From Candidatus Omnitrophota bacterium (lineage in GTDB: Bacteria > Omnitrophota > Gorgyraeia > Tantalellales > Tantalellaceae), in assembly GCA_049643885.1 (NCBI GenBank), contig JBARQV010000033.1:75229-139228 (forward strand): a DNA stretch of 64,000 bases, in the 5' to 3' direction. The notes beneath the pieces were generated by a model. The model was not told where the DNA came from. It searched no databases and saw nothing but the letters and a program-made list of their open reading frames with translations. Of this stretch, positions 9,001 to 56,897 are shown piece by piece. Position numbers and translations under genes: made by a program. Position 1 is the stretch's first letter; every line of letters starts with the position of its first letter.

Positions 9001-12000
9001 GCTCTGGGAAATATAGCTGCCTCCCATAATTTATCCCCGGAAACGGCAAAAAGGATATCCGACTTGCTGTTTGTCATGCTGAACGACGGCGATAAGGATG
9101 TTCAGAGGGCGGCTGCCGATGCGCTTGAAGCGATCGGTGAGGCAAAGAAGGACGACATGTGCATTTTATATGCTTATCTTTATGACCCCATAGGGAAGAT
9201 GAAGCATGAGGGGGTCCTGGAGAGGATCGAAATGGGACTTTTGACCAGCCGTCTTATAGGTGCCTTGAATTTGGGATCAAAGGTTCAAGGATCAGCCGTG
9301 AATGTTCTAAGCAGGGTGGCTGACCCGCAAGTAGTCGAGGCGCTGATCGATCAGCTAACGAACGAAGATGCCAATTTCCGTGTCGCTGTCATCAAGGCTT
9401 TGAGAGATATAGGCAAGCGCCTGTCCGAGCGTGTCAATAACGCGAAAGCCAGGGGGAGGAAACCGGATCCGAACGAAGAAGCCACGAAGGGGAGAGTAAC
9501 GGAGGTCCTGTTCTTTTGCTCGGAAAATGACCCGGACACAAGGGTTCGTGAAGCCGCAGCACGTTCTTTGGGGCTGGTCGGCGGTCCGGAGATAAGTCAG
9601 CGGTTATCCGGCATGCTGAAAAAGAAGGATTCCTGGCAGGTTAAGGAGGCCGCGATAGAATCTCTCGGCAAAACGGGTGACGCGAGAGGGGCAACTGCTA
9701 TCTTTGCGATAATGGGCGAAGGCGGTGTGCCGCACGGCGCGTATTTAACCTGTCTCAGGGCCCTGGGCGAGATCAGTCATTCTTTAAGAAGACTTCTCAC
9801 GAGAAATCTGCCTCCTGATATGGAAAAAAGGATAAGAGGATATTTGAAAGCGATAAACAGCAACCTGGTCAAAGGCCTGGAGGACGAGCGCATGGATATC
9901 CGCGCTGTAGCGGCAGAGACGCTGCTCATCAAGTGCGACGTAAGTGAATTAAAGGATATAATCAGCGATCCTGAAAAAGTCCTGCGGGCGCATGTCATTA
10001 TCAACCAGAAGGAAGAACAGGCCTTGCCAACGGCTGCCGGGATCACGCAGGAAATGGCGATAGAGTTTACTACTAAAGCCATCGTTGAAAAGAAATGGAG
10101 CAAATTGGCCGAACTTGGGCAGCACGCTGCTCCCGCGCTGCTGAAGGCGTTAAATGACCCCGTAGCGTTTTTCCGCCAGAAAGCCGCAGAGACCCTGCAG
10201 GTAGTAAGACACCCGCTGACGATAGCGCCGTTGTGGGAACGCCTGTTTATAGAAAAGAGCAATGATGTTTCTTACGCGATCGCGCAGGCTATTCTGGCGA
10301 TGGGCGGGGAGAACGCGGAAAAAGAATTGAAAAAGTTCATCGAGGAACACCCGGATCCTGCTATTTGGAAGGTCACCACGCTGTATCTTATGGGTGAGAC
10401 TAAAAAAGCGTCAACAATGATAAAGAAACTGCTTGAAGAAAACGACCAGGAAATCATACAGAAATTTCTTGAAGACAGGCTGGAAAAAGGTTTCCCAAAA
10501 GAAGAAAAAGAGCCCCTCAAAAAACTTATCGACATGGGCGTAACGATCCATTTTGACATTTTGGCTGATCAGGGATCGAGCAAGACGGCACGCATCGATG
10601 CGCTTAGATTTTTAGGTAAATATGGCGCCGAGAAACAAGTGGATGGCCTGGTCACTGCTTCAAAAAGCAATGATATGGAAATTGTGAAAGAAGCCGGCAC
10701 GGCCCTGGCCAGCATTAATGAGCGCCAAGTGCGGAAAAAGATCCCTACTTATCTCGAAGTTCTGGCTGACCCGGGTGCAAGTTCAAGAGCCCGGGTCGAA
10801 GCGGCGGATTTCCTGGGCGAATACGGCGGGCCGGCCGAACGAAAAGCGCTTGTGAATGCCGCGGGAGGCATGGATTTTAAAGTCACCAAAGCTATCACCA
10901 TGGCCATTTCCAAAATAGACAAGCGTCATGGAGGAAAGAAAAAAGGATCACACGGTTTTGCTTTTCTGCCGTTCGCCATCCCGCAGAACTTCTCTGAGTT
11001 GATCGAGATCATCAAGGAGTCCCCGGTTTGGTGCGGGGCGATCGCCCTCGGCGCTTTAGCCGTCTTCGCAGGCCTTATATTATTTCTACGCTTTGTTTAT
11101 CACAGATTGCGTCCGGTCGTATGGAACCTTAAGAGGATCGGAAGCAAAAATCCCGCAAAGCGCAAAGCCGCCGCAGCGGCATTAGGTGAGCTTGCGCCTT
11201 TTAAGGAAAAAGAAATCGAAGAAGTGATCTCCGCGCTCGAGGAAACCACACGTGATAAGGTCAGTGCTGTCCGTATGGCTGCCGCGGAAGCTATTGGAAA
11301 AATAGGAAAAGAGGCAGAAAACGCGATACCCGATCTTGTAAGACTTGTTATTGAGGACGAAGATCCCCAGGTCCGCATAACCGCCGCCAAGTCACTTGGC
11401 GAAACCGGCCTAATGGGGATCTTCGCCCTCGCTGAAAAGCTGAAGGATGAGGACGCCGCCGTCCGTTTATCCGCGGCGAAAGCCTTCGGCAATGTGGACC
11501 CAAAGACGCCAAAGATAGAACATATATTCGTAAATCTTGAGGGAACCCTGGAAGATCCGGATAAAGATGTCCGTGACGCCGGGATGAACGCTTTTAGCAG
11601 CCTTGATGCCCTGACCCCGGAGCGAAAGGTTAAAAGATATATCGCCGATCTCGGTGACGGGCAGCATGTCGGTGTCCGGGATGAGGCGATGAGACAACTG
11701 GACGAGCTTGATGCCGTGACGATAGGGCTCAGGGTAAAGAAATACATGTTCGACCTGGAAGACGATAACGCGGAAGTCCGTAAGAGCGGCGCGGAAAAAC
11801 TCGGCAAACTGGGCGTTTACGCAAGGGGCCTTGGCAGGAAAATACGTGGTACAGATGAAGAGTTCAGGGAGATGCTAAACGAGCTGAAAAAAGCCGCCCC
11901 TATTCTCGTCCAGATGCTGCAAAAGGATGAAGGTGCGGGTATCCGCGCGGCCGCAGCCGCGGCGCTCGGTGATATAGGGCCTGTTACGTTTGAAGTCGTC

Positions 12001-15000
12001 CCTGCCCTGGTAAAAGCCGTGAAAGATCCTGAAGCTAAAGTTCGCGAATCAGCCATCCTGGCGCTTTGCAAGTTTCCTGCCGCGACTCCGAATATGACCA
12101 ATGCTATTATAGGTGCGGCAGGTGATAAGAATGAGGGGGTCCGGGCTGCAGCTGCACGCTTTTTCGGAGGCGTAAAACCGGCCAGCGACCGGGTGATATC
12201 GGTTTTGGTGAAGCTGTCGGGAGACCCGGACGAAAATGTCCGCAGGGACGCGAGGACGGTTCTTGAAAAACTGGAAAAACCGCAAGCCGCTGTTCCCTCC
12301 CTCATAGAGATCGCAAAAGACGAAGAAAAGGACCTCGACACCCGCGTAGCCGCTATTTTAGGACTTGGAGAGATCACTCCGGTGACCACGGAAGCGATCA
12401 ATAATCTGGTGTCGTTTATCCGTGCAGCCGCAGGCCGGGAAGCAGTACATCAAAAGGCTACAGATAGAGAGCTTGCCGGTAGAAACATTATCGTTGGAAG
12501 GTCTTCTACTCATGAAACTGCTGTTCTTAGTAAATCCGAAGAAGAGAAAACGCACAGGGAAGAGTTTATTGCCGGCGAAGAATTTGACGGCAAAGATGAA
12601 TTTCACCGAGAGGTTGTTGAAAAATCCCAGACCAGGGAGCATGATTCAAGAAGGATCGCTTATGAAGAGGCAGCCGCGCGTGAAGCCTATCTTCGCGAAT
12701 CGGAAACCCGCGAAACATCTCTCAGGAAATCAGCGGAGCGCGAGGCCGCTATCCGCGAAACCGCCGTCGAAGCCCTTGTTAAGATCGGCCCTTCGGCAAA
12801 GCCCATTTTCATGCAGCTATTAGCTGACGATGAAGAGTATGTTCGCGAAGCCGGGGCACACGCTATTGCCAAGATCAGTCCCGATGCGGTTCAAGAACTG
12901 ATCAGTATTATATGCGCGACGGACACGGATACGAAATCTAAAAATTTCGGAAGAGATTATTATTTCCGTAGATATGCCGCGAAGGAACTGGTCAAGATAG
13001 GCCCGGAAGCGGTCTTTGCCTTGATGGAAAATCTTGAAAGCAGAGACCCTCGGTCCCGTAAAGCGGTAGAGAGTGCTCTCGGTATTATCGGGGAGGAACC
13101 CGTCATTGAAGCCGCGGTACACGTTTTTGCCGCGAAAGGTCCTGAAGTGATCCCTGTCCTGGTGAATTTGGCAAAGAGCGAGCATTACCATATCAGGCTT
13201 TTCATGGCCAGGGCCATCCGCAAAGTGGGGCCTGAAGCCATTTCAGCTCTTGCAGAGGAGTTGAATAGCGGAAAAGACAGTGATCTCTCACACGCGGCGG
13301 ACGCGCTTGGCGAGGTGGGGCCTGACGCGGCCTTGGCGGCGGACCGTCTTGAGAAGCTGCTGGAAAATGAGATGTGGTGGGTCCGGAATTCCGCTTTTGG
13401 CGCGCTCAAAAAGATAGGGGCCTTGACCCTGGAAAGGAAGAAAAAGAAGTTCAGGAAAGACTCCGAGGATAAACACAGCCTCGCATATCGGCTATCAGGG
13501 AAGAAAGCCCTTGAGGAACTGGAATTCAGGGAAATGCTTGGCGGTTTGGGAGGATTCGTTCCGGTATTCCTGGCGCAGGGCACGCTTGGAAATTATATTC
13601 GCACCCTGATCTCTAAACTGGAAGAGCTGGAGGCCGCGAACCCGACAGCGTTCTGGGTGATCGCGGGCGCAGCAGGTATCTTATTGACCGCAGGAGTCAT
13701 TCTTGCTGCCCGTCGTGCATTACGTCCTAAAAGAAAAAGATACCTGAGGATGGCCACGGGCGAGATCCTGGCCGAAAGAGTGAAAGGGATAAAGGGCCTT
13801 GCGGAACTCCGGGACAGAAAAGATCTAGCCGGTCTATGTGAGGCTTTGAAGAATGACGATAGCCCGGAAGTCCGTGAAGCGGCGGCTGAAGCTATCGGCA
13901 TGTTTTCGGAAGCGGGTAATACCATGGATGTCAGGGACGTGCTGGAAAGCGCTTTAATGGATCCTGTAAAATCTGTCCGCGCGACTGCTCTCGAAGCGAT
14001 CTTGAACATAGGAATAGGGCCTAGAGCGGCCGCGGAAGCTTTGACCGTGGCCTTATCCGAAAGTAATCCGCTTGATGTCCGTGAAGATGCCGCGGTATAC
14101 CTGGGTGCTCTTGGCGAAAGTCATCGAGACGACGTAGATACTATCGAGGCGATAGCCACGGGACTTGCTCTCGCCATGAAAGACGAGAATACATCTATTC
14201 GCAGGGCCGTTATGCGGTCATTTAATCGCCTTGCGCATCCCAGGGTGGTCGGTTTCTTGGCGATCATGCTTTCCGAGGATGCAGATGCCGATATACGTTG
14301 TGAAGCAGCGGAAGCCCTTGCCAGGACCGACAGCCCGTATGCCGTGATACCTTTAACTGAAGCCATGATCGGCGATGCGGACTCGACAGTCCGCAAGGCA
14401 GCTACGAGAGCCGTAGCCGATATATGCGCTCAAATAAAAGGGGCACCCATCGTGAAGGATAAGGTGGTGCCCGTCTTTGTTGAGGCTCTGGGTGACAGGG
14501 ATAAGGAAGTCCGGAAGAGAGTAGCTTTGGAATTTCCGTCAATAGCCGCCCCGGATGTCCTTGAACAGGTGTTGGGCCCGGATTATCAAGAGATCCTGGA
14601 GGGATACACCCTCGCGGCAAAAGGAGAGCTCGAGAATATAGGCTCTAAAGGCATGCCCGCTTTGACAGCCGCACTTAAAGATAATGATAGTTCTGTCCGC
14701 GAAGCCGCGGCCAGACGTTTGGGCGAACTTGATCTTTCGAAATTGATCCCGCATGTGGCTGAGGCGTTGGAAGACCCGGATGAGTCCGTTCGTGAGAGTG
14801 CGGTCAGGGTCCTTGGCGATTTCGGCGACAGAAGAGCGATAGGGCTGTTGAACCAGGCATTTTATAACGCGCGCACGGGTAGTTCCGTTCACGCTGCGGT
14901 CAGGGAAGCTTTAAAGAAAAGCTTGATGAAATTTGTGTCATCCCTGGACATGGACGGAGATAAACCGGACAAAGGAACGACCCAGATACTGTTCATGGCC

Positions 15001-18000
15001 GTCAAGAGTGACGACAGTTCACTGCACGAAGCGGCCGCAAAGCATATAGCCAGGCTTGATCCTTTAGAAGCATTAAGCAGCCTTGAAAAACATTTAACTC
15101 ATGAAGGCCCGTCAGTTCGATCGGTAGCCGTTAACTTATATAAAGAACGGGCGCTGAAATACCTGTCTTCCGGACCTGTTCCATCCGCTGCCCCGCGTAT
15201 TGTGCGAGTGCTGGCTGATGCCGGCGTCAAGGATGAAGATACGGTAAGCAGGTTGAAGACAGCTGTCTTGTCCATTCTGGATACGCAGCCCGAAACCATG
15301 GTCATCATCGACCTGGTTGCGGCGCTGAAGGGCAATTACGATCCTGTTTTTGATGCTGTGATGGAAAGGATCGAGAGATCTGATTTTTCGCAGCTTTTCC
15401 CGCATCTGGTAAATGCGACAAGTAGTCCGAAAGAGGACATCCGGCACGGCGCTGTTCTGATCCTGGGCAGGTTCCGCGAAGAAAAAGTGATAGCTTTGCT
15501 GGAAAGGATCATAGGCAGAGAAGACCCCGGCAGTCTCGTCCATATAACGGCGATGGAAACGCTGGAGTGGAGCCTGATCGATCTTATATGCGCTCATCCT
15601 GATTCACCCGATACTGAACGTTACAAAGGGCTTCTTTTTGCCTACGGAAATGAAGACACTGTAAAGAAATTGAGATCAAGGCTTGCCGATCTTAAAGAGG
15701 AGTTAAGTCCCGGGCTCTTGAAGATACTGGATGAACTGCAAAAAGCGCTTCACAAAAAGATCGATCCGGGCCTTGAAACTTTCGGCTCCTTTATGTTACT
15801 GCCGCTTGCGTCCGCATCCATGTACGGAGGCGCGCATTATCTGATGATTTTCCTGGCGTATGTCCTGTATGGTGCTGTCATAGCCGGCGTCGGCGTCGCG
15901 ACATACATGTATCTTTTGAAGCGTTATTGTCCCGATGAATATAGGTATTTGACGGACAGATGGGATGATCTAAAAGTCGGATCGTCCCTCAGAAAACAGT
16001 TATGGCAGCAGCTCCGGCAGGAGGAAGGATGGAAAGGAGTCCTGAAGCTTGAATGGCCAAGATTCAAGGCGTCCATGAGAAGGTCCGGGCGCTGGATCGT
16101 TCTAAGGTTCTCCCTGATCGTGTCATATTTTAACCGGGGAAGTTCGAGCCTCCAGGCAAGGGTCCGCCTGCGCGCCATAAGAGAGCTTGTTGAATATTTA
16201 CTGACAGATGAGAATTACGTTGTAAGAAGGAAGGCGATCGAGAGAATAGGCGATCAAGCCGGATTGCTGGATAAAGACGTTTCTTTGGGTGATGATTTTA
16301 TAAGAGTTTTACTTGATGAAAAAATAATAAGGTCTCCCGAATCTACCGTCCGCATAGCGGCGGTAAAGGCCTTAGACAAACTCAGCCGGGGATGGAAAAA
16401 CTGGCTGGGTATGCCTGACAGCCTCAGGGATCCCATGATCGGCGAGCTTGAAACAAGCTTGTCCGACAAAGAACCTGAGGTCCGCAAAGTTGCCTGGAAA
16501 GTCCTTCGTGATCTGAACGAGGAAGATGAAGGACTTATCCGGGCCTTGACCGAAGCTTTAAAGAGCGATGATGTCTCGGTCAGGAGAGACGCGATAGCCA
16601 TGATCATGAAAGTAAAAGAAAATGAAGGCGCGATCAAGCCCCTGCTTGAGCGCTTGACAGATCCAAACCGTCAAGTCCGTCTTGATGCGGCCGGGACAGT
16701 ATGTAATCTTACGCATAAAATAGCGGAGACGCAAGAAGAAGCCGCGGCAGTGGAGAGAGTAAAGGATATATTAATGAACAACGACGAAGTCGCCCGTGAC
16801 GCGGAATTCCGCGAGATCGCAGTAAATATCCTTGGTAATATCGGATACATCAGCCCTGTCAGGCTTCTGAAGGTCACCTTGCTAGACGAAAGCTGGCGCG
16901 TCCGGCGCAATTCGGCCGAAGCCCTGGGGCGGATAGCCAAATGTTTGATAAAGACGCCGATGGGACAAGACATCGCCGAGGTCGGTTATATTATCACCTA
17001 CTTGACCGAAGCCTTGAACGATAAGAACAGGCTGGTCCGCAAGGCCGCGGCCGACACGCTTCTGTCCATGGATTATCCGGCGATGGTGAAAGCAGGGATC
17101 GTCCCGTCGCAGTTCGAGCAGGCAAAGCTGGACAGAATCCTGAGAGGATACATTTTTGCCGCTGACAAAAAATGGGAAGACCTGGGCTGGCTGGGAGAAG
17201 ATGCCGTTCCGGCGCTAATAGGTGAACTTAACGATGAACATGATCCGGCAAGGCAGAAAGCGGCAAGGAGCCTGGGCGATATGGCGATTCCCGATCCTGT
17301 TCTAAATAATAATGCCGTGGAAGCGTTGTTAAAACGCTTAGCGGGAGAGGATGATCCATACGTTCACGCGGTATACATACACGCTTTGGGTAAACTGGGC
17401 GATACGAGGGCCCTGGAACCGTTGAGGAACATATTGCTCTCGGACGAGCGCCCCTTCATGCGCATGGTAAGCATAGAAGCGCTCGGGATACTCGGTTCTC
17501 AGCTAGAGGAAAACTCGATCGAAAAAGGATTCATTTACAAGACATTGATCGCGCGGCTGTATATCGATAAGGGCACTCCGCTTATTAGTCCAATGGTGTG
17601 GACTTTAAGCAAAATGGGCGGCCCCAACGTAGTAGAGTTATTGATCACGACCTTAAAAGGCAAAAATCCGGAAGGGGAAAACGGCCCGGACTGTATGGCT
17701 GCCGTGACAGTCCTGGGTAACCTGGCCGGCGAAATCAAAAAAGACCGCGAGCCGAAAGAAAGAACGATAAAAACTCTGCTTCCTTTCCTTTCGAGTGGGA
17801 ACGCCGAACTGCGTGATGCCGCGGCGAATGTCCTGTCATCCCTCGGGACGACGGATGAACGGTTGGCGATGGGGTATGCCGAAGCCCTGAAAAGTAAATA
17901 TTCCGCCGCCCGCAAGAACGCCGCGTATGTCCTGGGCGTTCTGGCCTATTCATTGGGGCCGGATGCGGTGGAGAGAAAGGAAGTCATCAAGGCCCTGCTT

Positions 18001-21000
18001 GAAATTTTGGCCGGGGACCCGGACATGGATGCCCGCATGGCGGCCTTTTATTCGGTGAACAAGCTGGAAGCTACGTATAAACAACAGGCCCGGGCATACA
18101 TCAAACAGGTGCATAATGAGAATATGGAGATCCGCCGCCATGCCGTGAAGTCGCTGGCTTCTTATGCCGGTATCTTGAAAAGCCCGAGAGCGGTAGCGTA
18201 TGCATTGATGGAGGCCATGGCAGACCCGGAAGCTGATATTCGCCAGACCGCTGCTGAAGGGCTCCGCAAGAGAACGGAAAGTTTCGATGATCCGGAACCC
18301 GAGACAGTATTATATTCTAACCTTTATCACGGGAATATCGATGCGGTTGTCGCCGCGGGGAAAGGAAACGTGGACTTTCTTATCGAAGTTCTGGATTCCG
18401 GCCCCAAGACCCGCAAGTCGGCGATCCAGGCTTTGGGGGGGATTTGCCAGACGTTAAGCCGGGATCCCGAAGATGTTCCGGTAAGAGAAAAGATAGTTTC
18501 GGTCTTGAACGAGGTCGAAACACAGACCGATCAGGATACGATATATCGTGAACACGCGGTTTATGAATTGAGCCAGATCGCGCCGGCCGAGTCTATCCCC
18601 AATATGATCGATGCCTTGAAGGACGCGAATGACTATATCCGCCAGACTGCGGCTATAACACTCGGCAATATAGGTGATGCCAAGACGGTCGAGCCGCTGA
18701 TAGAAGCTTATGAAGCTGAAGGGCAGCAGGCCCAGATCCGCAGGGAAATAGTCCATGCCCTTGCGAAGATAGGCGGGGGCAAGGCAGTGAACGCGGTGGT
18801 AAAGGCTTTAAAAGACGGGGCTATAGGTGTTCGTAAGGTTGCGGCCAGGGACCTGGGCACAATAGCGGCAAAGACCGGCAACGTAAAAGCCATGGTCTAT
18901 AGCAGCCTCTTCAGCGGTGAAGAGAACTGGATCATCAGGATCCTTGTAGGTAAACAGATCATTCACGGCTTGATCGATATTTTAGAAAAAGGGGAACTTC
19001 CTGTCCGGTTAGATGCAATGGAGCATTTAAAGGAAAGAGCGATCGATTTCGCGGAGGATGTTCTCTTCAGCGGGGAGGCCGATCCTGCCACGCTCAAGTG
19101 TTGGAAGATACTGAACGACGAACTTATACGGACTTTGCAGGACCATAAGAGGATCAAGGATGAGATCGAGGCAATGCAAGAAGCGGAGAAAACAGCTAAA
19201 GGCGTGCAGGAGATAAAAGAGACGAAAGAGGAAGAAATAAAGAAACAGATGGGGCGGATCGCCGAAGATACTTTAAAAGAGATAAATGAAATGTTTAAAG
19301 AAAATGCTGAGGCGAAAGAAAGGTTAGAAAAAGCTTTAGCTGAGAAGCCCCAGGAAATAGGCAATATCAGGGATGAAGCGATGGTTCTTTATGACGCCAT
19401 GGATTCGGGCCCGGAAGTCGGGGAAAACGCGAAAAACATCATGTGCCAGATGCTTTCCACTTTGAAAAGGATCCCCAAGTACAGAGGCGTTTTATTTGAA
19501 TTTCGGAGAGATCTCATCACTTGTTTAGCCGTAGTTTTCAAAAGTGACTCTAAAATGATGCGCGACAGCATGGCGGAGCTGTTTAAAGATGTGGATGACG
19601 GTATGGCGCAATTTTACAGGGAACTATACGTAGCTGAAAAAACGGATTGGATCATCGAGAAAATAAAAAGCGAGTCAAGGGAACGAAGAGCTGTGACATA
19701 TCTTTTTCTTATTTCTTCCCTGAACATATGCCCGGAGATACAAAAAACGGCAGCTAGTATTTTGAGCCGGACAATACAGTATTTCAGAAGGGATCCCGTT
19801 TGTATATCTCGCATATTTTCAAGCTTGGTCGAACTTTTTGAAAAAGGCCAGGACGGCGATGCCCGGGCCGCGGCTGCCAGTTCCCTGGGCGAGATCATGC
19901 TTTATCTTGAGAGCGCGCCTGAGGCAAGAAATGCGCTGGAGAAGGAGATAAAAGAAGAACTTGAAAGATTTATTGCTGTTTCAGGAGATCCGCAAGAAGA
20001 CGGCAAGGTCCGCGCTGCGGCAGCCGAAACGCTTGGGCATATAAGTCCCGTTTTGAAGAGGTATCCGGAAATAAAAGACTCCGCGAAAAAAGTTCTGATC
20101 GATACTATAAGGGATGAGGAAGATAACACTGTCAGGGCCGGATTAGCGAAAGGTCTGGGCCGTCTTGGAGATCCCAAGGCGATCCCGGTACTGCTGTATG
20201 TTTATGGATTGCTGGAGGAGTTTAAAAAGAAGGCGGATGACGTAGGTTCAAGGGGGGCGATAATGCTGGCACTGGGGCAGACGGGTTCTTGCCTGAAAGA
20301 ACCTTTGAGGGACGAGATCAAAGAGATACTGCTGGGCATTGATGTTCCGAAAAAAGAAAAAGGAACATGGGAACAGGAAGTTAAAGGATTAGGCAAGTCA
20401 GTTGATACCGGGGCGATCAGGTTTTTGAAGGAAATTCTGGAAACAGAAGAAAATGAAAGTGTTAAAGCGTCCGCAAATAAGGCTATAAAGCAAATAGAAG
20501 CCGCACTAAAAGAAAACAAAAGATTTATCGATATTGTTATCGCCATGCTCCACAAGGGGCTCAAAGACGCCGAAGTTTCAGTAAGGGAGAACGCTGTCGA
20601 GGGATTGGGCCAGATATGTTTGAGGATGCCCGATATAGGCCGAAAGGAAACGCCGTTTCTTCTCCGGGCGATGAGGGACAAGGACAGGTACGTCCGCGGT
20701 GCGGGCGCCAAGGTCTTGCGCCAGAGCGGCGCCAGTGCTCTGGTTGAAAAAGCCTATCCCGAGCGTGAGGTTTTACTTGCTTATGAGATCGTTGCGAAAA
20801 AAGCTCCCAGTATTGGGGGAACATTTACCGCGACACACCTTGGAGTCGCGGCCGGATTGATATCGGCAAGAGAGATAGACCGAAAAGCCTTTCTTGAACA
20901 GGAATTGATCGCCTTGGGCTCAAATTCAATTCCGGCTTTAAAAGACGTATTCGAGGAAAGGCAGCTGGATGACCCCTTTATTTTGACCGCGGCAAATGTT

Positions 21001-24000
21001 TTTGCCATAATAGAGGATCCAAAGACGATACCTATAATGGTCAAGGGTTTTCCATACGTTAACGAGATGGGACAGCTGGGTATAATCGGCGCTCTTGCTT
21101 CTCTTGGCAGCAAGGGAGCCGTAAAATTCATGTCCAAAACCATATTGAGTTCGGCGAATTCAAAGATGCGCGCCATGGCGGCTTTGGAATTGATCACGCG
21201 AGCAGAGTGTGACGACAAAGAGAAGATCTTGGGATCCTTCTTTGGGCCCACTTGCGACAATATCCTCATGGCCTATACTTCCGCTGAACAGGTCAGGGAA
21301 AACGGAGGCCAGTCCATATCTTTAAAGGCTATCATAAAATCCAAAGAAGAAGCCCTAACGAAGGCGAGGGAAGCGAAGCGCCGGGCCGCGATATGGGAGA
21401 AAACCAGGGAACTGGCCGCGGAACAAGGAAAATTAGATAGAGCGGAGAAGGGGCTCAAAGAAAATACGGCAAGATTGATCGTCTTGGGCGAGGACGCCGT
21501 CCCCGCGTTGATACCTCAGCTGAAAGAGGAGAGGGAAGCTATTATGCGCATCGTGGTCGAGATCCTGAGCAAAATAGGAAGCACTAAAGCGATAATACCT
21601 TTAAGCAGAGTTCTGCCGAAAGTCAAGAACCCCGAGATCCAGCTATTGGCCATAGAGACGCTTGAGAAACTTGGCTCTTCGCTGCTCCAGACAAGGGCGG
21701 AGGAAGACGCGAAGAGCAAAGGAAAGATACCCCGCGCTTTGAGGGAAGTATGGAAGTTCATAGCCGGCATTTTTACCGGGATCTTTCACGAGACAGGTTC
21801 ATTCCTTGAATGGATACCCAAAGGCAAGAAGCCCAAAGACCCGAAGAAGACCGCGTTTTTGTCGAAAAAGAGGATCGTTTACTGGGGCAGAAGTTTACGC
21901 TGGAGGATCGTGGATAAGATCAATAATGCGGGCCGTTCCTTGAAAAGGGATCCGTTGAGGGTGGAAGCCGATATGTTGATCGGCACCCTGACCTCAAAGG
22001 ATGAAAAAGCCCTTGATCTCGCGTCGGGGGCATTGGACAACTTACGCATCCCACTAAGGAAGATCATCAATGGTGAGATCAAGGCTTTCAACGAGAGTCC
22101 GCATCCGACGGCGCGGAAGTTCGCGGCGGAACTTTTGTGTGATTACGCTCTTACTGAGGGCGCCGGGCGCTGGGCAAAATTCAGAATAAGAAATCTTTTG
22201 TTCCGGGGTTTAAGTGATGAAAATCTGGACGTGATCGAAGCTTCCCACAAGTCACTGATTAAACTGGGTGTCGCGCCTGAAAGAATTGCGCGAGCCGAGA
22301 TAAGCGCTTTCTCAAATCCACACGCGAAGGCCAGGAAGTTCGCGGTGGAATTTTTGTCCAGGTACATAACGCCGAAAAAATCCGAAGAAGCCGGGGAAGC
22401 GGAAGACGGTAAAAAGTCCGAAGAAAAACTGGAAAGAAAGATAATTGCGATCCTGTTTGACGCTTCAAGGGATATAGACGCCGGTGTCAGGCGGTCTGCT
22501 TCAAACGCGTTGGGTAAACTTGGTCTCACGGGTGAACATCGAATAGAGGATCTAAAGGAAATATGCGGACGAAGCGGCGCAAAGAGCGGCAAAGCGGCAA
22601 GAGCTCTTGTTTACAGTTTATACGACCCCTACGGGGAAGTCGTAGAATTTGCAATGGAAAAATTAAAATCTCCCACGGCCAAAAAGGCAGTTCCGTATCT
22701 GGCAGCTGTCTTATCTGACGAGAGCGCGCCGTTTGTCCGCCTGGCGGCCGCTACGATCCTCGGTGATATCGGCGATACAAAAGCGATCGAGTCATTGCGT
22801 AAGCGTCTTTCGGACAGCGACGTGAAGGTCCGCCGGACTGCATACGAGTCCCTGGCCTTGCTGGATGAGCCGAAAGGACTTATAGAGGCGCTTGTCAGGC
22901 TGCTTGTCAAGACTCCGGAATTAGATGAAAAAGTCCGGAATGATGCCTTGGCATTCCTGGGCGAGATCGCTTCTAATATGGGAAGGGAAGCTCAGGAAGT
23001 GCAGGACGGAATAAACATGTTGGTTAAAGCTTCGTCCGAGACGGTAATGGAGATGCCCCTTTACAGCGCGGTAATAGAGGCCATGAATCAGCTAGGGGCT
23101 TCACAGGAACAATTCATTACTGTTATCAACGGAGCCTTAAACAGCTTTGACGGTAACGTCCGGCAGGCTGCCGCTGAACACCTCGCGGGCATAAATGCTC
23201 CAAGCGTAGAACGGGAAGGCCGTACTGAAGAGCACCGGGAAGCCCAGGATCAGGAAGTTCAGGACCAGGGGACGGTTGAGCTCGGCGGTTTTGCCTTTAT
23301 GCCTTTTGTCCTGGCTGCCGGAGAATTGCGTACCGGGGTTTTATTATGGATTGCGATCGTAAGCATAATTTTACCCGTAGTTTGGGCGATAGTTTTACGT
23401 CATCAAATAAAACAGTGGTGGGGAAAGAGCGGAAGGCCGGGATTATCGGCAGCATGGACGTGGATAAAGGAATGGCGTCCATACAGGGTCAAGCTTTGGT
23501 TCTGGAATGCGATGTCCCATGCCGCGCAGCCATCTTTCAGGGCTGCTGCCATCAGGCGTCTGGGCATATACAGAGGAAAGGTAGACGCGAAGAGATGCGA
23601 TCTGATAGATAGGAGACTTATGGCCTGCCTGTTTGATAATAGGTTCCCTGGGGGTATTGTGGAAGCCATGGAGATCTTGAAAAATATAGGAAACGAACAA
23701 ATGGCAAGATCCCTCGTTGTTATACTTCATGGCGAGGAGGAAGCATCGACCCGCCAGGCCGCGGTAGAAATACTGAGCGAAATAGTGAAAGCCGGAAAGA
23801 TAAAAGATCCTGCTTTTCAAAGATCGGCCAAGGAAACCATGTTTCTCCTCTTACGTGACGATCCCGATACGGATGTTCGCGCGGAAGCCAGTGTTGCCGC
23901 CAGACATCTCGGAGCTACTAATGACCAGATCATCGAAGCGTATATATTAGCTTTAAAGAGCAAGCATGCGGAAGCCCGTAAGGTAGCAGTAATGAACCTT

Positions 24001-28062: not shown

Positions 28063-28149
28063 AAGTTGCACAGTGCAGTATGTTCCCGTACAGGGAGGAT
28101 CCACGCCGGGCGGAGGGGCCCTGGTAGGGAGCATACTGCACTGTGAACT
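28063..28149 (+). repeat. GC-core hairpin repeat, copy A (family 1)
   Basis: aagttgcacagtgcagtatgttccc GTACAGGGAGGATCCACGCCGGGCGGAGGGGCCCTGGTA gggagcatactgcactgtgaactt. The imperfect stem is about 19-24 bp and the only non-Watson-Crick pair is a G-U wobble on the plus strand. The core matches copy B (35720-35797) and the reverse complement of copies C and D (55556-55729). Confidence 0.85.
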
Positions 28150-28237
28150 TTGCATATTTTTGCCTACGGCCTCGCCCGGGATGACATATTATTTATCTGT
28201 CTTCTGTTATCTGTCCACTGTCTTCTAAACCTCGTGC

Positions 28238-35683: not shown

Positions 35684-35719
35684 GAAAATGCCGGATAGCA
35701 TAACACAAAGAGCAAGAAG

Positions 35720-35797
35720 CATAGTGCAGTATGTTTCCGTACGGGGAGGATCCACACCGGGCGGAGGGGCCCTGGCAGGGAACATACTGCACTGTAT
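35720..35797 (+). repeat. GC-core hairpin repeat, copy B (family 1), intra-operonic between hisB and hisH
   Basis: catagtgcagtatgtttcc GTACGGGGAGGATCCACACCGGGCGGAGGGGCCCTGGCA gggaacatactgcactgtat. The wobble pair has moved relative to copy A (U-G at a different stem position), so pairing is kept. Confidence 0.85.
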
Positions 35798-35852
35798 AGT
35801 TTGCATCCAAGTCCAGCGCAGAGCAGTGAGTGGTGGACTGAAATGGTGATCT

Positions 35853-42228: not shown

Positions 42229-42891
42229 ATGATCAAAGTTAAAATATGCGGCGTGACAAACCTGGAAGATGCGGAGAAAGCGTGTGAATACGGCGCGGAC
42301 TTGATCGGGTTTATTTTTGTCAAAGATACCCCGCGGCACGTATGTCCCGAAACTGTCGGCGGTATCATAAAAGAACTCAAGGGGAAACACGCCCAAGTGG
42401 GCATGGTCGGGTTGTTCCAGGGCACGAGCCCCGAGTCTATCGCCGAGACAGTTTCGCGGTGCGATCTTGATTATGTCCAGCTTCACGGTAACGAGACACC
42501 GGGTGAATGCAGCCAGCTGAAGAAAATACTGGAAGAGAAGTACGGCCGGGAGGCCAAGATCATCAAGGCTTTTAAGGTCAAGGGAGAGATACTGGGGCCG
42601 TTCACCCCAGGCGATTACAAAGACGTCGATTATTTTGTTTTCGATACTTATCACCCGGAGATCCCCGGGGGGACAGGAGTTAAATTTGACTGGGAAGTAC
42701 TGGACAGGGAAAAGGAGAAAATAAAAAAGGATTTCTTCATTGCCGGGGGATTGGACGCGAAAAACGTTTTTGACGCCGTAAAGACCGTCCGGCCTTACGG
42801 GGTAGACGTTTCCAGTGGAGTGGAGAAAGAGCCCGGTAAGAAAGATGAAAAAATGTTAAAGGAGTTCATCCAAAATGCGAAAAAAATATAA
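42229..42891 (+). CDS. trpF: Phosphoribosylanthranilate isomerase
   Basis: [24 protein letters not shown] is the TrpF N-terminus. Confidence 0.88.
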
Positions 42892-44065
42892 ATTACCCGA
42901 TAAAAAAGGTTATTTCGGCATATTCGGAGGGGAATATGTCCCGGAGACCCTTATGACAGCTTTAAGGGAACTGACAACGGCGTATAACAAGATAAGCAGG
43001 ACGCGTTCGTTCAGGCAGAAACTGCGTTATTATCTCAAAGAGTATGCCGGCAGGCCCACCCCGTTGTATTTCGCGGAGAAGCTGACCGAAAAGTTAGGAG
43101 GAGGCAGGATATACCTTAAACGGGAAGACCTGCTTCACACCGGCGCGCACAAGATCAACAATACTATCGGCCAGGCCCTTTTGGCGGTAGAGATGGGGAA
43201 GAAAAGGGTTATAGCCGAGACCGGCGCAGGCCAGCATGGAGTGGCTACCGCGACTGTGGCGGCCCTTTTCGGCCTTAAATGTGATGTCTACATGGGGACA
43301 GAGGACATCGTAAGACAGAACCTGAACGTGTTCCGCATGAAGCTTCTGGGGGCGAGGGTCATACCCGTTGAGAGCGGGTCGTGCACTCTCAAAGATGCCA
43401 CCAACGAGGCTATGAGGGACTGGGTGACCAACGTGCGGGATACTTATTATATCCTGGGCTCAGTTGTAGGTCCTCATCCTTATCCCATGATAGTCCGCGA
43501 TTTTCAATCGGTGATCGGCGAGGAGACCCGTGACAGTATGATGAAGACCGAAGGCAGGCTTCCGGATTACCTGGTGGCTTGTGTCGGCGGCGGAAGTAAT
43601 TCGATAGGACTGTTTTATCCCTTCGTGGATGAAAGGAGAGTAAAGTTCATAGGTGTCGAGGCCGCGGGGTTCGGCCTTGCCAGCGGGCATCATGCGGCGG
43701 CTCTCATGAGAGGCAGGGTCGGAGTCCTGCACGGGAGTAAAAGTTTTCTCCTGGAGGACAGTGACGGGCAGATAAAGCTTGCCCATTCCGTTTCGGCCGG
43801 GCTGGATTACCCGGGAGTCGGACCCGAGCATGCGTATTTCAAGAAAACGGGCAGGGCTGATTATGTTTCGGCAACGGACAAGGAAGCCCTTGAAGGAGTG
43901 AGATTGCTTTCCGAGACGGAAGGCATCATTCCCGCCCTGGAACCGGCGCACGCGGTATATTACCTGAAAAAACTTGCGAAGAAAACAAAAAAGAAAGATA
44001 TAATCGTTCTTTGCCTTTCCGGGAGAGGGGACAAGGACATCGATATAATCAAAAAATATATGTAA
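42875..44065 (+). CDS. trpB: Tryptophan synthase beta chain
   Basis: The PLP-lysine region [16 protein letters not shown] and GGGSN are present. Confidence 0.95.
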
Positions 44066-44069
44066 GGAA

Positions 44070-44117
44070 CCCCACACTTCCGTGTGGGGAATGAATACTA
44101 CAGGCGGAAGCCTGTAG
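44070..44117 (+). repeat. Double-hairpin element X1 (family 2) between the trpB stop and the trpA start
   Basis: Hairpin 1 is CCCCACAC-ttcc-GTGTGGGG (44070-44089). The linker AATGAATA follows. Hairpin 2 is CTACAGGC-ggaa-GCCTGTAG (44098-44117). It is homologous to X2 at 47729-47776. Confidence 0.8.
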
Positions 44118-44133
44118 ATGGAGAGGAGTTGGC

Positions 44134-44937
44134 TTGAATAGGATAAAAGAAACGTTTGACAGGTTGAAAAAAGAAAAAAAGAAAGCGTTTATCCCGTATA
44201 TTACCGCCGGGGACCCGAACATCCAGGCCACTAAAAGATTGGTCCAGGCGCTCTCCAGGGCCGGTGCGGATATCATCGAGCTGGGTATCCCTTTTTCAGA
44301 TCCGCTCGCGGACGGGCCCACCATACAACGAGCGGTCTTCAGGTCTCTGAAGGCGGGCTGCACGGTAGGGAAGATCCTGCGCATGGTCAAGGAGGCGAGG
44401 AACGTTGTTGCAACTCCTTTAATATTCATGACTTACTACAATATTGTTTTTAATTACGGCATTGAGCGTTTCGTAAAAGACGCAAAAAAGAACGGAGCAG
44501 ACGGGATCATAGTTCCTGACCTTCCGCTGGAAGAATCGAATGATCTTATAGAAGTGGCTTACAAAAACGATTTTTATGTCATATTGCTGGCAGCGCCTAC
44601 TACTCCGTTAGAGAGGTTTAAAAAAATAGCGAACCGGTCCCGCGGGTTTGTTTATTATGTTTCCCTGACGGGCGTTACCGGGGCAAGAAGAAAACTTTCA
44701 GAAAAGTTGAAAGGTGAAGTAAGGAAACTCAAAAAAGTGTCTGCGACGCCTGTGTGCGTCGGTTTCGGGATATCGAATCCGGTCCAGGCAAAGGAGATCG
44801 CCGAGGTGTCTGACGGCGTCATCCTGGGCAGCGCGACGATCAATGTTATGGAAAAATATCTGCCGGACAAAAATAAAGCGGTAAAAGAAGTGGAAAAATT
44901 TGCCAGGTCCATCGCCCGCGCCGTCCACAGCGCGTAA
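44134..44937 (+). CDS. trpA: Tryptophan synthase alpha chain
   Basis: FIPYITAGDP is the TrpA motif. The start is an apparent TTG preceded by GGAGAGGAG. Confidence 0.9.
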   Translation: MNRIKETFDRLKKEKKKAFIPYITAGDPNIQATKRLVQALSRAGADIIELGIPFSDPLADGPTIQRAVFRSLKAGCTVGKILRMVKEARNVVATPLIFMTYYNIVFNYGIERFVKDAKKNGADGIIVPDLPLEESNDLIEVAYKNDFYVILLAAPTTPLERFKKIANRSRGFVYYVSLTGVTGARRKLSEKLKGEVRKLKKVSATPVCVGFGISNPVQAKEIAEVSDGVILGSATINVMEKYLPDKNKAVKEVEKFARSIARAVHSA

Positions 44938-45385: not shown

Positions 45386-46657
45386 ATGTATAAGAAAAAG
45401 CAGTTAAAGAACGGACTCAAGATGGTAGTTTCACCGATGCCCCAGATGGCCTCGGTTTCCCTGGGAGTTTGGATCGGTATCGGCGGCCGTTACGAAAAAG
45501 CGAACTGGAGCGGGATGAGCCATCTTGTCGAACATATGCTTTTTAAGGGCACGTATGAACGCAGCGCTGAGCAGCTCAAGCGATCGATAGAAGGCATCGG
45601 AGGGGCGTTCAACGGTTTCACTTCGGACGAAGTTACCTGTTACATGGTAAAAGTCCCGGCCAAGTACCTGGAGCTCGGCGTCGATATACTTACCGACATG
45701 GTCTTCAATGCCAGGTTCGACGAGATCGACATAGCCAAGGAGAAGTTCGTCATATGCGAAGAGATAAAGATGTATAAAGACCAGCCTGCCGATTACGTGA
45801 TGGAGCTGCTCGGAAGCATCACGTGGCCGGACAATCCCCTGGGCAGGCCCCTTACCGGGAGCAGCACGACGGTAAGAAGTTTCAAGAGGAGCGATATGGT
45901 CGCTTTCAGGGATAATAACTATCATCCGGCTAACATGTCTGTCATCGCGGCGGGGAAAATCGCTTCCGACAGGTTTTTCGATTGCGTATCGAAAAAATTC
46001 ACCGGCCGCAAGAAAAAGAAGACGCCGACATTCAGGTCTCCTGTTGTGGACCAGAACAGACCGCGTGCGAAGTTCATGAATTCGAATACGAAACAGACGC
46101 ACGTTGCTTTGGGCTTTCCGCTTTTGGTAAAAGATGCCAGGGAAAGGTTCTCATTGAAGCTGATGAACGTGATCCTCGGCGGCAATATGTCATCGCGTCT
46201 TTTTGAGGAGTTGAGAGAAAAACACGGCCTTTGTTACGAAATAAGTTCTTCCTACAAGAGGCACAGTGACCTGAGCGAGTTGGTTATTCATTCCGGAGTG
46301 GATTCGTCCAGGGTCTTGAAATCAATTGTCAGTATACTCGACGAACTAAAAAAGATCCGTGATTACGGCGTGACGGAAGAAGAGCTTCTCCGGGCCAAAG
46401 AATACGCCAAGGGGCAGTTTCTTCTCGCCATGGAAGGCACGGCTACCAGGATGTTGTGGCTGGGGGACAGGCTCATGGTCCATCGGGATATCCCGGAGGT
46501 CAGGGAAGTGATCAAAAGGGTGGATGAGGTCGAGGCCGGGGATATTAAGAAAGCCTGCGAGAAGGCTTTCAGGGCGGCACTTGCCAATCTTGCCGTGATC
46601 GGTAACCTGAAAAAAAACGAGATAAAAGATATAAGAAGAGAGTTGGGTAAACTATGA
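45386..46657 (+). CDS. M16-family zinc peptidase (insulinase-like)
   Basis: The inverted zinc motif HLVEHMLFKG (HxxEH) is present. It is preceded by a GGAGG RBS. Confidence 0.85.
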   Translation: MYKKKQLKNGLKMVVSPMPQMASVSLGVWIGIGGRYEKANWSGMSHLVEHMLFKGTYERSAEQLKRSIEGIGGAFNGFTSDEVTCYMVKVPAKYLELGVDILTDMVFNARFDEIDIAKEKFVICEEIKMYKDQPADYVMELLGSITWPDNPLGRPLTGSSTTVRSFKRSDMVAFRDNNYHPANMSVIAAGKIASDRFFDCVSKKFTGRKKKKTPTFRSPVVDQNRPRAKFMNSNTKQTHVALGFPLLVKDARERFSLKLMNVILGGNMSSRLFEELREKHGLCYEISSSYKRHSDLSELVIHSGVDSSRVLKSIVSILDELKKIRDYGVTEEELLRAKEYAKGQFLLAMEGTATRMLWLGDRLMVHRDIPEVREVIKRVDEVEAGDIKKACEKAFRAALANLAVIGNLKKNEIKDIRRELGKL

Positions 46658-47727
46658 GAGGATCTTTCAGACTCGCCAGGATTTTCGGCATCTATATCGA
46701 TATACATTTTACGTTTTTTCTGCTGCTTTTGCTCTTTTTCATCCTTTTGGGCCCCAGGGGGCTGATCCTTATCCTGGGAGTGTTCTTTTTTGTGACGGTC
46801 CACGAGCTGAGTCATAGTCTTGTCGCTTTGCGTTTCGGGATCAAAGTCACAAAAATAACGCTTTTGCCGATAGGCGGTGTCGCTTCCATGGCTGAAATGC
46901 CCACAAAACCATACCAGGAACTTCTGATATCTCTGGCCGGGCCGCTTTCAAATTTGGCCGTCGTCGTTATCTTTTATTTCCCTCTATATTTTTTCCTCGG
47001 CGAAGAGACGTTGATGTATCCTTTACGGGTGATCACCGGGCAGGCTCCTTTTTCCGGTAACTTCAATATCCTGGCCCATATTTACTGGATAAATCTGATC
47101 CTCGCGGTCTTTAACATGATCCCGGCGTTTCCCATGGACGGGGGGCGTGTCCTTCGCTCTATTCTGTCCTACCGGATGGGCTTCAAGGCGGCGACAGGCG
47201 TGGCTGTGAGGCTGGGGCACATCTTCGCGTTATTATTCGGTTATATCGGGATCGTCCACGGGCACATTTTCCTTCTCCTCATAGCCGTATTTATATACAT
47301 GGCCGCTTCGAGCGAAGGCATCCAGGTGGATGTCCAGGAGACCATAAAAAAGTTCACCGTGCGCGATGTCCTGGCCAGAAGTTTTGTCCATGTCGGCCCG
47401 GAAACTACGCTGGCGCAGGTCCTGGAACTCATGTTTCACACCCACCAGGAAGATTTTCCGGTCTTGGAAGACGGTCAGATAAAGGGATTTGTTACCCGCA
47501 GGGAAGTTATCCAGGGCGTGCACATAAAAGGAAAAGATGCCAGTGTCAGCGAGATCATGAGAAAAGACATACCTGTGGTAAAGACTACGACCCGGTTACA
47601 TGATGTGCAGAAACTCATGATAAAATATCACACCAGCGCTATGCCCGTGGAAAGGAGTGGGCACGTGATCGGCGTGGTGACATTAGACGATATAAACAGG
47701 GTCTATATGGTTGTTGGAGAACATTAA
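46654..47727 (+). CDS. Site-2 protease family metalloprotease with tandem CBS domains
   Basis: Multiple TM helices, HELSH (HExxH) within a TM segment, the downstream FNMIPAFPMDGG motif and a C-terminal CBS pair are present. Confidence 0.8.
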   Translation: MRGSFRLARIFGIYIDIHFTFFLLLLLFFILLGPRGLILILGVFFFVTVHELSHSLVALRFGIKVTKITLLPIGGVASMAEMPTKPYQELLISLAGPLSNLAVVVIFYFPLYFFLGEETLMYPLRVITGQAPFSGNFNILAHIYWINLILAVFNMIPAFPMDGGRVLRSILSYRMGFKAATGVAVRLGHIFALLFGYIGIVHGHIFLLLIAVFIYMAASSEGIQVDVQETIKKFTVRDVLARSFVHVGPETTLAQVLELMFHTHQEDFPVLEDGQIKGFVTRREVIQGVHIKGKDASVSEIMRKDIPVVKTTTRLHDVQKLMIKYHTSAMPVERSGHVIGVVTLDDINRVYMVVGEH

Positions 47728-47728
47728 A

Positions 47729-47776
47729 CCCCATGCTTCCGCATGGGGAATGGATACCACGCACGGAAGTGTGTGG
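47729..47776 (+). repeat. Double-hairpin element X2 (family 2) between the S2P stop and the rpe start
   Basis: Hairpin 1 is CCCCATGC-ttcc-GCATGGGG. The linker AATGGATA follows. Hairpin 2 is CCACGCAC-ggaa-GTGTGTGG, with one G-U pair. Relative to X1, both stems changed sequence and kept pairing, while both loops are unchanged. Confidence 0.8.
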
Positions 47777-47794
47777 AGGAATAGAGGGGATAAT

Positions 47795-48442
47795 ATGAGC
47801 AAGAGAATTCTTATTGCGCCGAGCATATTGGCTGCTGATTTCAGCAGGCTCGGAGAAGAAATGAAAGCGGTTGAAAATGCCGGGGCGGATTGGGTCCATG
47901 TCGACGTGATGGACGGCATGTTCGTCCCGAATATCACGATAGGCCAGACGGTGGTCAAGTCCGTAAGATCCGTGACAGATCTGTTTTTCGATGTCCATCT
48001 CATGATCAACGATCCGATCAGGCACGTAGACCAGTTCGCCGATGCGGGTGCCGATATGATAACTTTCCATCTTGAATCCTGCGAGAACTGCTGCGTGGAT
48101 ATTGTAAAGAAAATACGAGACAAAGGAAAAAAAGCGGGTGTTTCGATAAAACCGGGAACGGACGTTTCGCTCTTGGAGGGCAAGTTAAAAGATATCGATA
48201 TGGTGCTCGTCATGACGGTCGAGCCCGGATTCGGTGGCCAGTCTTTCATGCCGGGGATGCTGGATAAAGTAAGGAAGCTTAAAAAAAATTATAATGGCCT
48301 GGTCCAGGTGGACGGTGGAATAAACAAGGAGACCGCGGCCGAGTCGCGTGCGGCGGGAGTCGACGTTCTTGTAGCAGGGACGTTCATTTTTAAGCACAAG
48401 GATTACGCAAAAGCGATAAAAGAACTGAGAGGGGAGGAGTAA
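47795..48442 (+). CDS. rpe: Ribulose-phosphate 3-epimerase
   Basis: ILIAPSILAADFSRLGEE..HVDVMDG..VPN is the Rpe signature. The ORF-track frame starts at 47711 and I prefer the ATG at 47795 after a GGAGGAATAGAGGGG RBS. Confidence 0.9.
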   Translation: MSKRILIAPSILAADFSRLGEEMKAVENAGADWVHVDVMDGMFVPNITIGQTVVKSVRSVTDLFFDVHLMINDPIRHVDQFADAGADMITFHLESCENCCVDIVKKIRDKGKKAGVSIKPGTDVSLLEGKLKDIDMVLVMTVEPGFGGQSFMPGMLDKVRKLKKNYNGLVQVDGGINKETAAESRAAGVDVLVAGTFIFKHKDYAKAIKELRGEE

Positions 48443-55555: not shown

Positions 55556-55626
55556 GCTGCGGTATATTTCCTACCAGGGCCCCTCCGCCCGGTGTGGATC
55601 CTCCCTGTACGGAAACATACCGCAGC
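55556..55626 (-). repeat. GC-core hairpin repeat, copy C (family 1, minus orientation)
   Basis: The reverse complement reads ctgcggtatgtttcc GTACAGGGAGGATCCACACCGGGCGGAGGGGCCCTGGTA ggaaatataccgcag. The single non-Watson-Crick stem pair is A-C on the plus strand and G-U on the minus strand. Confidence 0.85.
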
Positions 55627-55666: not shown

Positions 55667-55729
55667 CGGTATATTTCCTACCAGGGCCCCTCCGCCCGGT
55701 GTGGATCCTCCCTGTACGGAAACATACCC
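55667..55729 (-). repeat. GC-core hairpin repeat, copy D (family 1, minus orientation), tandem with copy C
   Basis: The core is the same as copy C with a shorter outer stem of about 11 bp. It lies 40 nt downstream of copy C. Confidence 0.8.
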
Positions 55730-55825
55730 CACTATGTATTATACATTCCACATTATCTTTAAGGGTACTCTTATAGCTTCCAACATTGACTATAACTATT
55801 ATATATGTTAAACTCTTGTGATATT

Positions 55826-56818: not shown

Positions 56819-56897
<79 letters not shown>

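Follow-up and report, generated by a model that had tools for sequence, protein, structure and literature searches.

A 48-nt twin-hairpin repeat in two operon spacers of an Omnitrophota genome, probably built from the palindromes of an IS200/IS605-family transposase gene

The window analysed here is a 64-kb stretch of DNA from a Candidatus Omnitrophota bacterium, and on its forward strand two elements of 48 nt, X1 and X2, fill the spacers between neighbouring genes. X1 (44070-44117, +) separates trpB (PALP domain; 42875..44065, +), whose TAA stop codon at 44063-44065 lies 4 nt before it, from trpA (Trp_syntA; 44134..44937, +), whose TTG start codon at 44134 lies 16 nt after it. A Shine-Dalgarno-like run, GGAGAGGAG (44120..44128, +), read directly from the sequence, stands 5 nt before this TTG. 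X2 (47729-47776, +) lies between a peptidase M50/CBS protease gene (46654..47727, +; TAA stop at 47725-47727, 1 nt before the element) and rpe, encoding ribulose-phosphate 3-epimerase (47795..48442, +; ATG at 47795, 18 nt after the element). The purine-rich runs before the rpe ATG, likewise read directly, are GGAGG, composed of the last two G of the element and the AGG that follows it, and GAGGGG (47775..47789, +). Both elements are found within an operon and directly before a ribosome-binding site. The original prediction had two copies at exactly these positions, which is confirmed. It had also placed both 4-5 nt after the upstream stop codon, which holds for X1 and fails for X2, and about 17 nt before the downstream start codon, for which the actual distances are 16 and 18 nt. 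Two independent Logan assemblies of the same strain (L004, L006) have contigs that start at window position 44078, inside the first hairpin of X1, consistent with an assembly break at a repeated sequence.

Each element consists of two hairpin units of 20 nt (an 8-bp stem and a 4-nt loop), H1 and H2, joined by a short linker. In X1, both stems are perfect: H1 (44070..44089, +) reads CCCCACAC-TTCC-GTGTGGGG, the linker (44090..44097, +) reads AATGAATA, and H2 (44098..44117, +) reads CTACAGGC-GGAA-GCCTGTAG, with a loop of the GNRA type. In X2, H1 (47729..47748, +) is CCCCATGC-TTCC-GCATGGGG, the linker (47749..47756, +) is the family consensus, AATGGATA, and H2 (47757..47776, +) is CCACGCAC-GGAA-GTGTGTGG, with one G:T pair and AGG directly 3' of it. 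The two linkers both fit AATGRATA. As RNA, X1 and X2 are each predicted to fold into the twin hairpins at -29.7 kcal/mol (z of -4.4 and -4.8), and as single-stranded DNA they give the same twin hairpins at -18.1 and -17.3 kcal/mol (z of -6.5 and -5.5). The twin-hairpin pattern, with the inner stems left free, matches the window exactly twice, at X1 and X2, and never in 100 shuffles, and among all tetraloop hairpins of the window with 7-bp stems the TTCC and GGAA loops are restricted to these two elements; chance is therefore no explanation. The stems are stable and GC-rich, as might be expected of intrinsic terminators or of fortuitous hairpins, but no T-run follows either hairpin, 35 related copies exist elsewhere, and X1 and X2 stand inside operons immediately ahead of ribosome-binding sites, such that a terminator was rejected and the likelihood that remains for either reading is close to nil.

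A search of Rfam 15 at gathering and at permissive thresholds returned no family matching the twin hairpin (best overlapping hits 10.8 and 11.5 bits, E > 1), in agreement with the earlier statement that the element matched no named motif. Several other candidates were considered and set aside. A self-cleaving ribozyme would have to lack any known core motif as well as an Rfam hit; a start codon at the AUG of the linker was rejected given that its frame relative to the downstream gene varies; and a CsrA-type GGA site in the linker was dropped because the linker of X1 is AATGAATA.

The two copies belong to a larger family. A genome scan in which loops and linker were fixed and stems left free recovered members from another Omnitrophota MAG (L007) and from two Planctomycetales MAGs (L012, L009), and a metagenome scan in which the loops were free added about 34 further copies. 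Chance or coding matches, which made up three of the six hits in genomes and three of the 37 in metagenomes, were discarded. A scan of viral contigs yielded no twin-hairpin copies. The family thereby counts 35 or more distinct copies, from Omnitrophota, Planctomycetales MAGs, and metagenome contigs, with a degenerate 36th in the second Planctomycetales MAG, L009. In the partial genomes covered there are two copies in the 64-kb window, three full and one split in 13.5 kb of L035, and four on one 214-kb contig (L019, L033). The 35 de-duplicated copies align without gaps. Pairing is kept in 95.7% of H1 cells and 98.2% of H2 cells, and compensatory changes occur at six stem pairs, such that the difference in stems between X1 and X2 with pairing preserved, on which the original prediction had drawn, holds across the family and recurs in the further copies. 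Its claim that the loops TTCC and GGAA and the linker are invariant is true of X1 and X2, whereas across the family both vary, and in some members the linker is expanded or replaced.

Wherever both neighbours are resolved (23 independent sites), the AATGGATA form has the sense orientation and lies between co-directional genes. At most sites a stop codon lies 0-23 nt upstream and the next start codon 7-43 nt downstream. AGG directly follows H2 in 23 of the 35 copies and A directly precedes H1 in 33 of 35, the left flank being otherwise merely A-rich (AA, AAA, or TAA). In the L007 and L012 copies, the repeat itself supplies the TAG stop codon of the upstream open reading frame. A target-site duplication or exact insertion boundary was sought and none could be defined, as filled and empty sites are too diverged. 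The downstream genes are some 20 unrelated housekeeping genes, including trpA, rpe, those for V-ATPase subunits A, B, D, and E, nusB, acpS, asd, and accB, as well as hisI, rplA, fusA, pfkA, rpsP, argF, iscS, and others, and several cistrons of one V-ATPase operon each have a copy of their own. Given that these genes are unrelated, a ligand- or pathway-specific switch is ruled out. In architecture alone the element resembles the guanidine-II (mini-ykkC) riboswitch, which also has a pair of small hairpins in tandem, with tetraloops able to pair, just ahead of a ribosome-binding site; unlike that riboswitch, its loops are not ACGR, it has no link to a gene class, and it has no Rfam hit, and a riboswitch of this kind was rejected.

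Not all relatives of the element are intercistronic. One copy (L038 799-846) contributes 16 in-frame codons, PHLRVGNGYHTHECVG, to the uninterrupted open reading frame of a type VI secretion sheath gene, where it separates the VipA domain from the VipB domain, and a single H1 (L058 508-527) lies in frame in the signal-peptide region of a gene that follows a transposase gene. On L033 a related form occurs twice (10002-10051 and 11379-11428), between cistrons and right after the stop codon; relative to the genes its hairpins stand in reverse order, and they are joined by a 10-nt linker, AATTATAATW. Finally, on a 1.26-Mb Omnitrophica contig, two single H1+AATG units (L056 7300-7610, -) mark the start of two repeated non-coding units, each of about 230 nt, close to a toxin-antitoxin pair; Rfam gave no match for these units.

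Comparison of orthologous junctions is informative with respect to the age of X1 and X2. Four related Omnitrophota (TrpA 81, 74, 71, and 70% identical) have the same gene order from hisD to plsY, and their trpB-trpA gaps of 7, 31, 98, and 53 nt lack the element, as do M50-rpe gaps of 51, 32, and 176 nt in relatives. The family covariance model had no hit in 68 kb of the four syntenic relatives. Since the trpB-trpA gap of the nearest relative is 7 nt, insertion of X1 would have loosened an otherwise tight junction. Similarly, in the V-ATPase operons of L020 and L035, whose proteins are 72-93% identical, presence differs at three junctions, one being filled only in L020 and two only in L035, and alternative sites are occupied by other palindromic inserts. 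At one such junction, a third relative has a single chimeric hairpin composed of the H1 5' arm, a TTAC loop, and the H2 3' arm. The twin hairpin is a dispersed repeat that is gained, rearranged, and lost, and no ancestral regulator of the trp or rpe loci. Where orthologous sites are both filled, however, the element is identical at 43-48 of 48 positions, as against 45-57% of adjacent third codon positions in the most diverged pairs. Together with the sense-only orientation, this high identity exceeds what a passive repeat would predict. Both observations could reflect selection for a function at the RNA or DNA level, concerted evolution with a tnpA master copy, or repeated insertion at preferred sites.

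The same L020 operon holds further palindromic sequence. Two MITE-like inserts of 213-258 nt (AGTGACTAAAGTG...GACAC-TTAC-GTGTC...), in opposite orientations, lie in its spacers at 5816-6028 and 9821-10078, and a third spacer (11858-12090) is packed with four other tetraloop hairpins.

The origin of the repeat is suggested by weak hits of the covariance model, which are split copies in which H1-AATG and GATA-H2 are separated by about 85 nt. Translated, the split-copy region matches Pfam Y1_Tnp (E 3.5e-29). The associated proteins score 80-92 bits against the NCBIfam IS200/IS605 model NF033573 (cut-off 55) and 27-36 bits against the model for REP-associated tyrosine transposases, NF047646 (cut-off 80). 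L054 carries an intact tnpA gene of 120 aa between the V-ATPase E and C genes, and here H1 is ACC CCA CAC TTA CGT GTG GGG AAT, encoding T-P-H-L-R-V-G-N, while H2 is ATA CCA CAC ACG TGA GTGTGTGG, with the stop codon forming the H2 loop. Omnitrophota homologues with 45-50% identity have the same layout. Across the clade, H1 coincides with the codons for T-P-H/R/C-L/F-R-V/M-G-N, and H2 overlaps the tnpA stop codon or sits in frame within the gene; both hairpins are present, within the gene and at its end, in the tnpA of L054, L055, L056, L057, L058, and L059. Given that TPxLR aligns with the FPxLR motif of ordinary IS200 transposases, H1 evolved from native codons.

The correspondence between protein and repeat extends to individual variants. 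PHLRVG corresponds to the H1 stems of the TTAC class; PHFRVG, as in transposase P0159, gives CCCCACAC-TTCC-GTGTGGGG, identical to H1 of X1; PRFRVG gives CCCCACGC-TTCC-GCGTGGGG, the H1 of L007, L030, and L039; and PCFRMG, as in the L057 tnpA (P0169), gives CCCCATGC-TTCC-GCATGGGG, identical to H1 of X2. These matches of protein variant to stem were confirmed on the DNA of L057 and L058. Likewise, the intact tnpA of L059 contains an in-frame 48-nt element with the AATGGATA linker that is identical to X1 at 44 of 48 positions and whose H2 (YYRRKPVE) is that of X1, and a second, split copy lies immediately 3' of the gene. The protein P0142 (...TPHLRVGN|GYHTRECVEE...) may be read at the protein level as the product expected of a tnpA bearing the mini-element deletion. 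The clade is rare, with 69 cluster representatives at E <= 1e-10 among 1.84 billion, and its genes co-occur with copies of the element on L020, L035, L047, L055, and L059. A tblastn search of the 64-kb window for tnpA found none, which counts against the preferred explanation and leaves a transposase of this clade a candidate for the cognate enzyme in this organism.

In several relatives, tnpA, intact or decayed, occupies the position between the V-ATPase E and C genes (L054 6001-6363; L035 6229-6585; L020 7199-7414; L047 2682-3042), where it has the character of a domesticated gene passed on by vertical inheritance. The open reading frame of the V-ATPase C subunit in L020 apparently begins within the 3' end of tnpA and continues across H2.

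Taken together, X1 and X2 are probably diverged copies of one 48-nt dispersed repeat of the REP/REPIN kind, built from the H1 and H2 palindromes of a small tnpA clade of Y1 (HUH) transposases of the IS200/IS605 family. By sequence, the element would be a miniature, non-coding derivative of the H1-to-H2 segment of tnpA, organised like a REPIN as two inverted palindromes. Single-stranded DNA hairpins are bound by IS200/IS605 TnpA as well as by REP-associated transposases, with cleavage adjacent to the hairpin (PMC6006769), and the element is probably mobilised likewise, as single-stranded hairpins. The Y1 transposase would bind the hairpins in single-stranded DNA, cut them, and rejoin them, spreading the mini-element and inserting it 3' of A-rich or TAA-like sites; selection would then retain mainly those copies that lie in short post-stop spacers and are oriented with AGG, the core of a Shine-Dalgarno sequence, facing the next gene. 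In the lineage of the window, the element would have been inserted in this manner into the trpB-trpA and M50-rpe spacers. H2 would be an inverted and diverged H1, so that the same hairpin is presented on both strands, and a protein that reads it on both strands would keep the loops complementary.

Several of these traits have precedents. REP/BIME/REPIN sequences and the Y1 transposases that accompany them (REPtrons) similarly combine short palindromes in inverted doublets, compensatory stem changes, and a HUH-Y1 transposase gene of low copy number which bears the repeats itself. REPs have been found within 20 bp of the ends of upstream open reading frames, some supplying a TAG stop codon (PMC6006769, PMC3733652), and REP copies inserted in frame in tnpA(REP) genes, as well as "double-foot" REPs, are on record (PMC6006769). 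A canonical REP/REPIN system run by a REP-associated tyrosine transposase (RAYT) is an alternative, and the short inverted doublet near the ends of upstream open reading frames, an H2 that ends in GTAG or GTGG, and the GTAG-type REPs reported in the PVC superphylum (PMC3733652) all speak for it. It is nevertheless very improbable. The proteins stay far below the cut-off of the RAYT model and pass the IS200 model, and REPs carry an unpaired 5' GT[AG]G foot, whereas here GT[AG]G closes H2 on its 3' side and is base-paired in the stem, with C[TC]AC as its partner, and the foot of H1 is CCCC/GGGG. Moreover, the transposase is of the IS200 type by sequence, H1 consists of native transposase codons, and the doublet, unlike REPINs, is just 48 nt long and, in its AATGGATA form, locked in the sense orientation between cistrons.

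A further parallel is the TnpA(REP) subclass 2.4 with in-frame REP insertions (Quentin et al. 2018, PMC6006769), whose double-foot REPs have GT[AG]G and C[TC]AC at their two ends, as does the element described here. The order of the feet is reversed, however, being 5'-C[TC]AC...GT[AG]G-3' here, the host phyla differ, and the proteins carry DH[VI]H and YIR[EN]Q, motifs characteristic of class 1, rather than the NH[IFV]H and YIxNNP of subclass 2.4 (PMC6006769). Non-autonomous IS200/IS605 derivatives (palindrome-associated transposable elements) are likewise tiny and non-coding, keep only the hairpins recognised by Y1 enzymes, and have neither terminal inverted repeats nor a target duplication. 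Classical IS200/IS605 ends, by contrast, lie outside the open reading frame, with hairpins that face the same way on one strand and a conserved target of 4-5 nt 5' of the left end, whereas here H1 lies inside the frame, H1 and H2 are mutually inverted, and the left flank is AA, AAA, or TAA. Rickettsia palindromic elements and intragenic REPs resemble the element in that palindromes are tolerated in frame within genes (L038, L058, tnpA), and differ from it in that the copies described here are mostly intercistronic and unrelated in sequence. The IS200-type score and an H1 inside the open reading frame fit neither classical insertion sequence ends nor classical REPtrons, which counts against the preferred explanation; failing two defining tests of the canonical REP/RAYT system and one of classical IS200/IS605 ends, the element is set apart from both.

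The question of a regulatory RNA deserves separate consideration. The loops of X1 and X2 are complementary, as originally noted, and this holds for the family, in which two loop classes predominate, one combining TTCC with GGAA or GGGA and the other TTAC with GTGA or GTAA, while one copy has TTGC/GTAG. The four loop-loop positions are 95% paired, the central pair being AU, CG, GU, or UG. Loop 2 is nearly always a GNRA tetraloop (GGAA, GGGA, GUGA, or GUAA), and the partner of TTAC is far more commonly GTGA than GTAA. These observations, in concert with the sense orientation at 23 of 23 sites, the nearby stop and start codons, the AGG after most copies, the conservation of the element well beyond that of neighbouring synonymous sites at orthologous positions, and the separate copies of several V-ATPase cistrons, speak for a co-opted cis-acting RNA module, in which the transposase explains spread alone and the hairpins dock via their loops (UUCC with GGAA, UUAC with GUGA) and tune re-initiation, coupling, or the stability of downstream mRNA. 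Such a module is, on balance, unlikely. The same junctions lack the element in close relatives, the element precedes unrelated genes, the same hairpins occur inside coding sequences, and a related form has the hairpins in reverse order with a different linker. Stem mismatches are G:U in 13 cases and A:C in eight, G:U being not clearly commoner, which is no clean RNA signature. Loops of four nucleotides would form a very short kissing helix at most. In addition, the loop covariation mostly reflects a single split between two clades and is automatic if H2 is an inverted H1.

When H2 is compared with the reverse complement of H1, 15-17 of 20 positions agree in most TTAC-class copies, 12-17 overall, and 12-13 in X1 and X2. 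In a TTAC copy, the centroid fold is one long hairpin that competes with the twin fold, while in the class of X1 and X2 the stems have diverged and the twin fold alone is stable. Because H2 resembles an inverted H1, loop complementarity is explained without a kissing interaction, and the inverted-copy origin alone could account for it; the kissing-loop compaction that had been suggested as possible is not needed. Part of the earlier picture of a cis-acting RNA modulator survives, namely the hairpin structure, the compensatory stems, and the sense placement from stop to start codon. What does not survive is a dedicated role at trpB-trpA or rpe, given the absence from four syntenic relatives, the patchy presence in the V-ATPase operon, the roughly 20 unrelated downstream genes, the copies in open reading frames, and hairpins that are transposase-gene sequence. 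The mobile repeat that had been named as the alternative is the better description, although it was reached by evidence other than the refutation tests originally proposed.

X1 and X2 are co-transcribed, and each must form a pair of stable hairpins in the transcript, beginning 1-4 nt downstream of the stop codon and ending 16-18 nt ahead of the next start codon. Hairpins so placed must have some influence on termination and re-initiation. Translation or mRNA stability may plausibly be affected; likely forms of such an effect are a break in tight translational coupling and a barrier to exonucleases, as a by-product of insertion or at most a secondary adaptation. In E. coli, a REP hairpin that follows a stop codon by no more than about 15 nt reportedly lowers expression of the upstream gene. 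A stronger version, to which we assign a low probability, is that a domesticated IS200-like tnpA in the V-ATPase operon seeds operons with a cassette of stop-adjacent hairpin, GNRA hairpin, and AGG that the host has co-opted for coupling or for the stability of mRNA segments, with loop complementarity and sense-only orientation as functional RNA features.

The probable derivation of the twin hairpin from a transposase gene has broader implications. An RNA-like motif in an uncultured phylum is explained without a new regulator, and caution is warranted in that compensatory stem changes and loop covariation can arise from a DNA-level repeat. The unusual parts of the system are the palindrome kept within the transposase frame, with amino acids that co-vary so as to keep the hairpin, and the orientation-locked spread into operon spacers. 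This compact Y1 transposase system has its palindrome inside the enzyme's own reading frame (PHLRVG, PRFRVG, PCFRMG), and the 48-nt element derived from it occupies spacers of essential operons in a single orientation. It may serve as a model for the emergence of REP-like elements from IS200-type genes, and could show how translational coupling, for example that of trpB and trpA, is reshaped.

Other features of the window merit brief mention. At the gathering threshold, Rfam matches the window only once, at a tRNA gene (56819-56894, +). A single uninterrupted open frame of more than 9,200 codons extends from the first position of the window to 27807 (+); it has 37-nt repeats at 11942-22772 and looks like a giant gene. 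A second repeat family, unrelated in sequence to the twin hairpin, consists of imperfect intergenic palindromes of about 65-93 nt at 28063-28155, 35714-35806, 55560-55624, and 55667-55731, two in each orientation.
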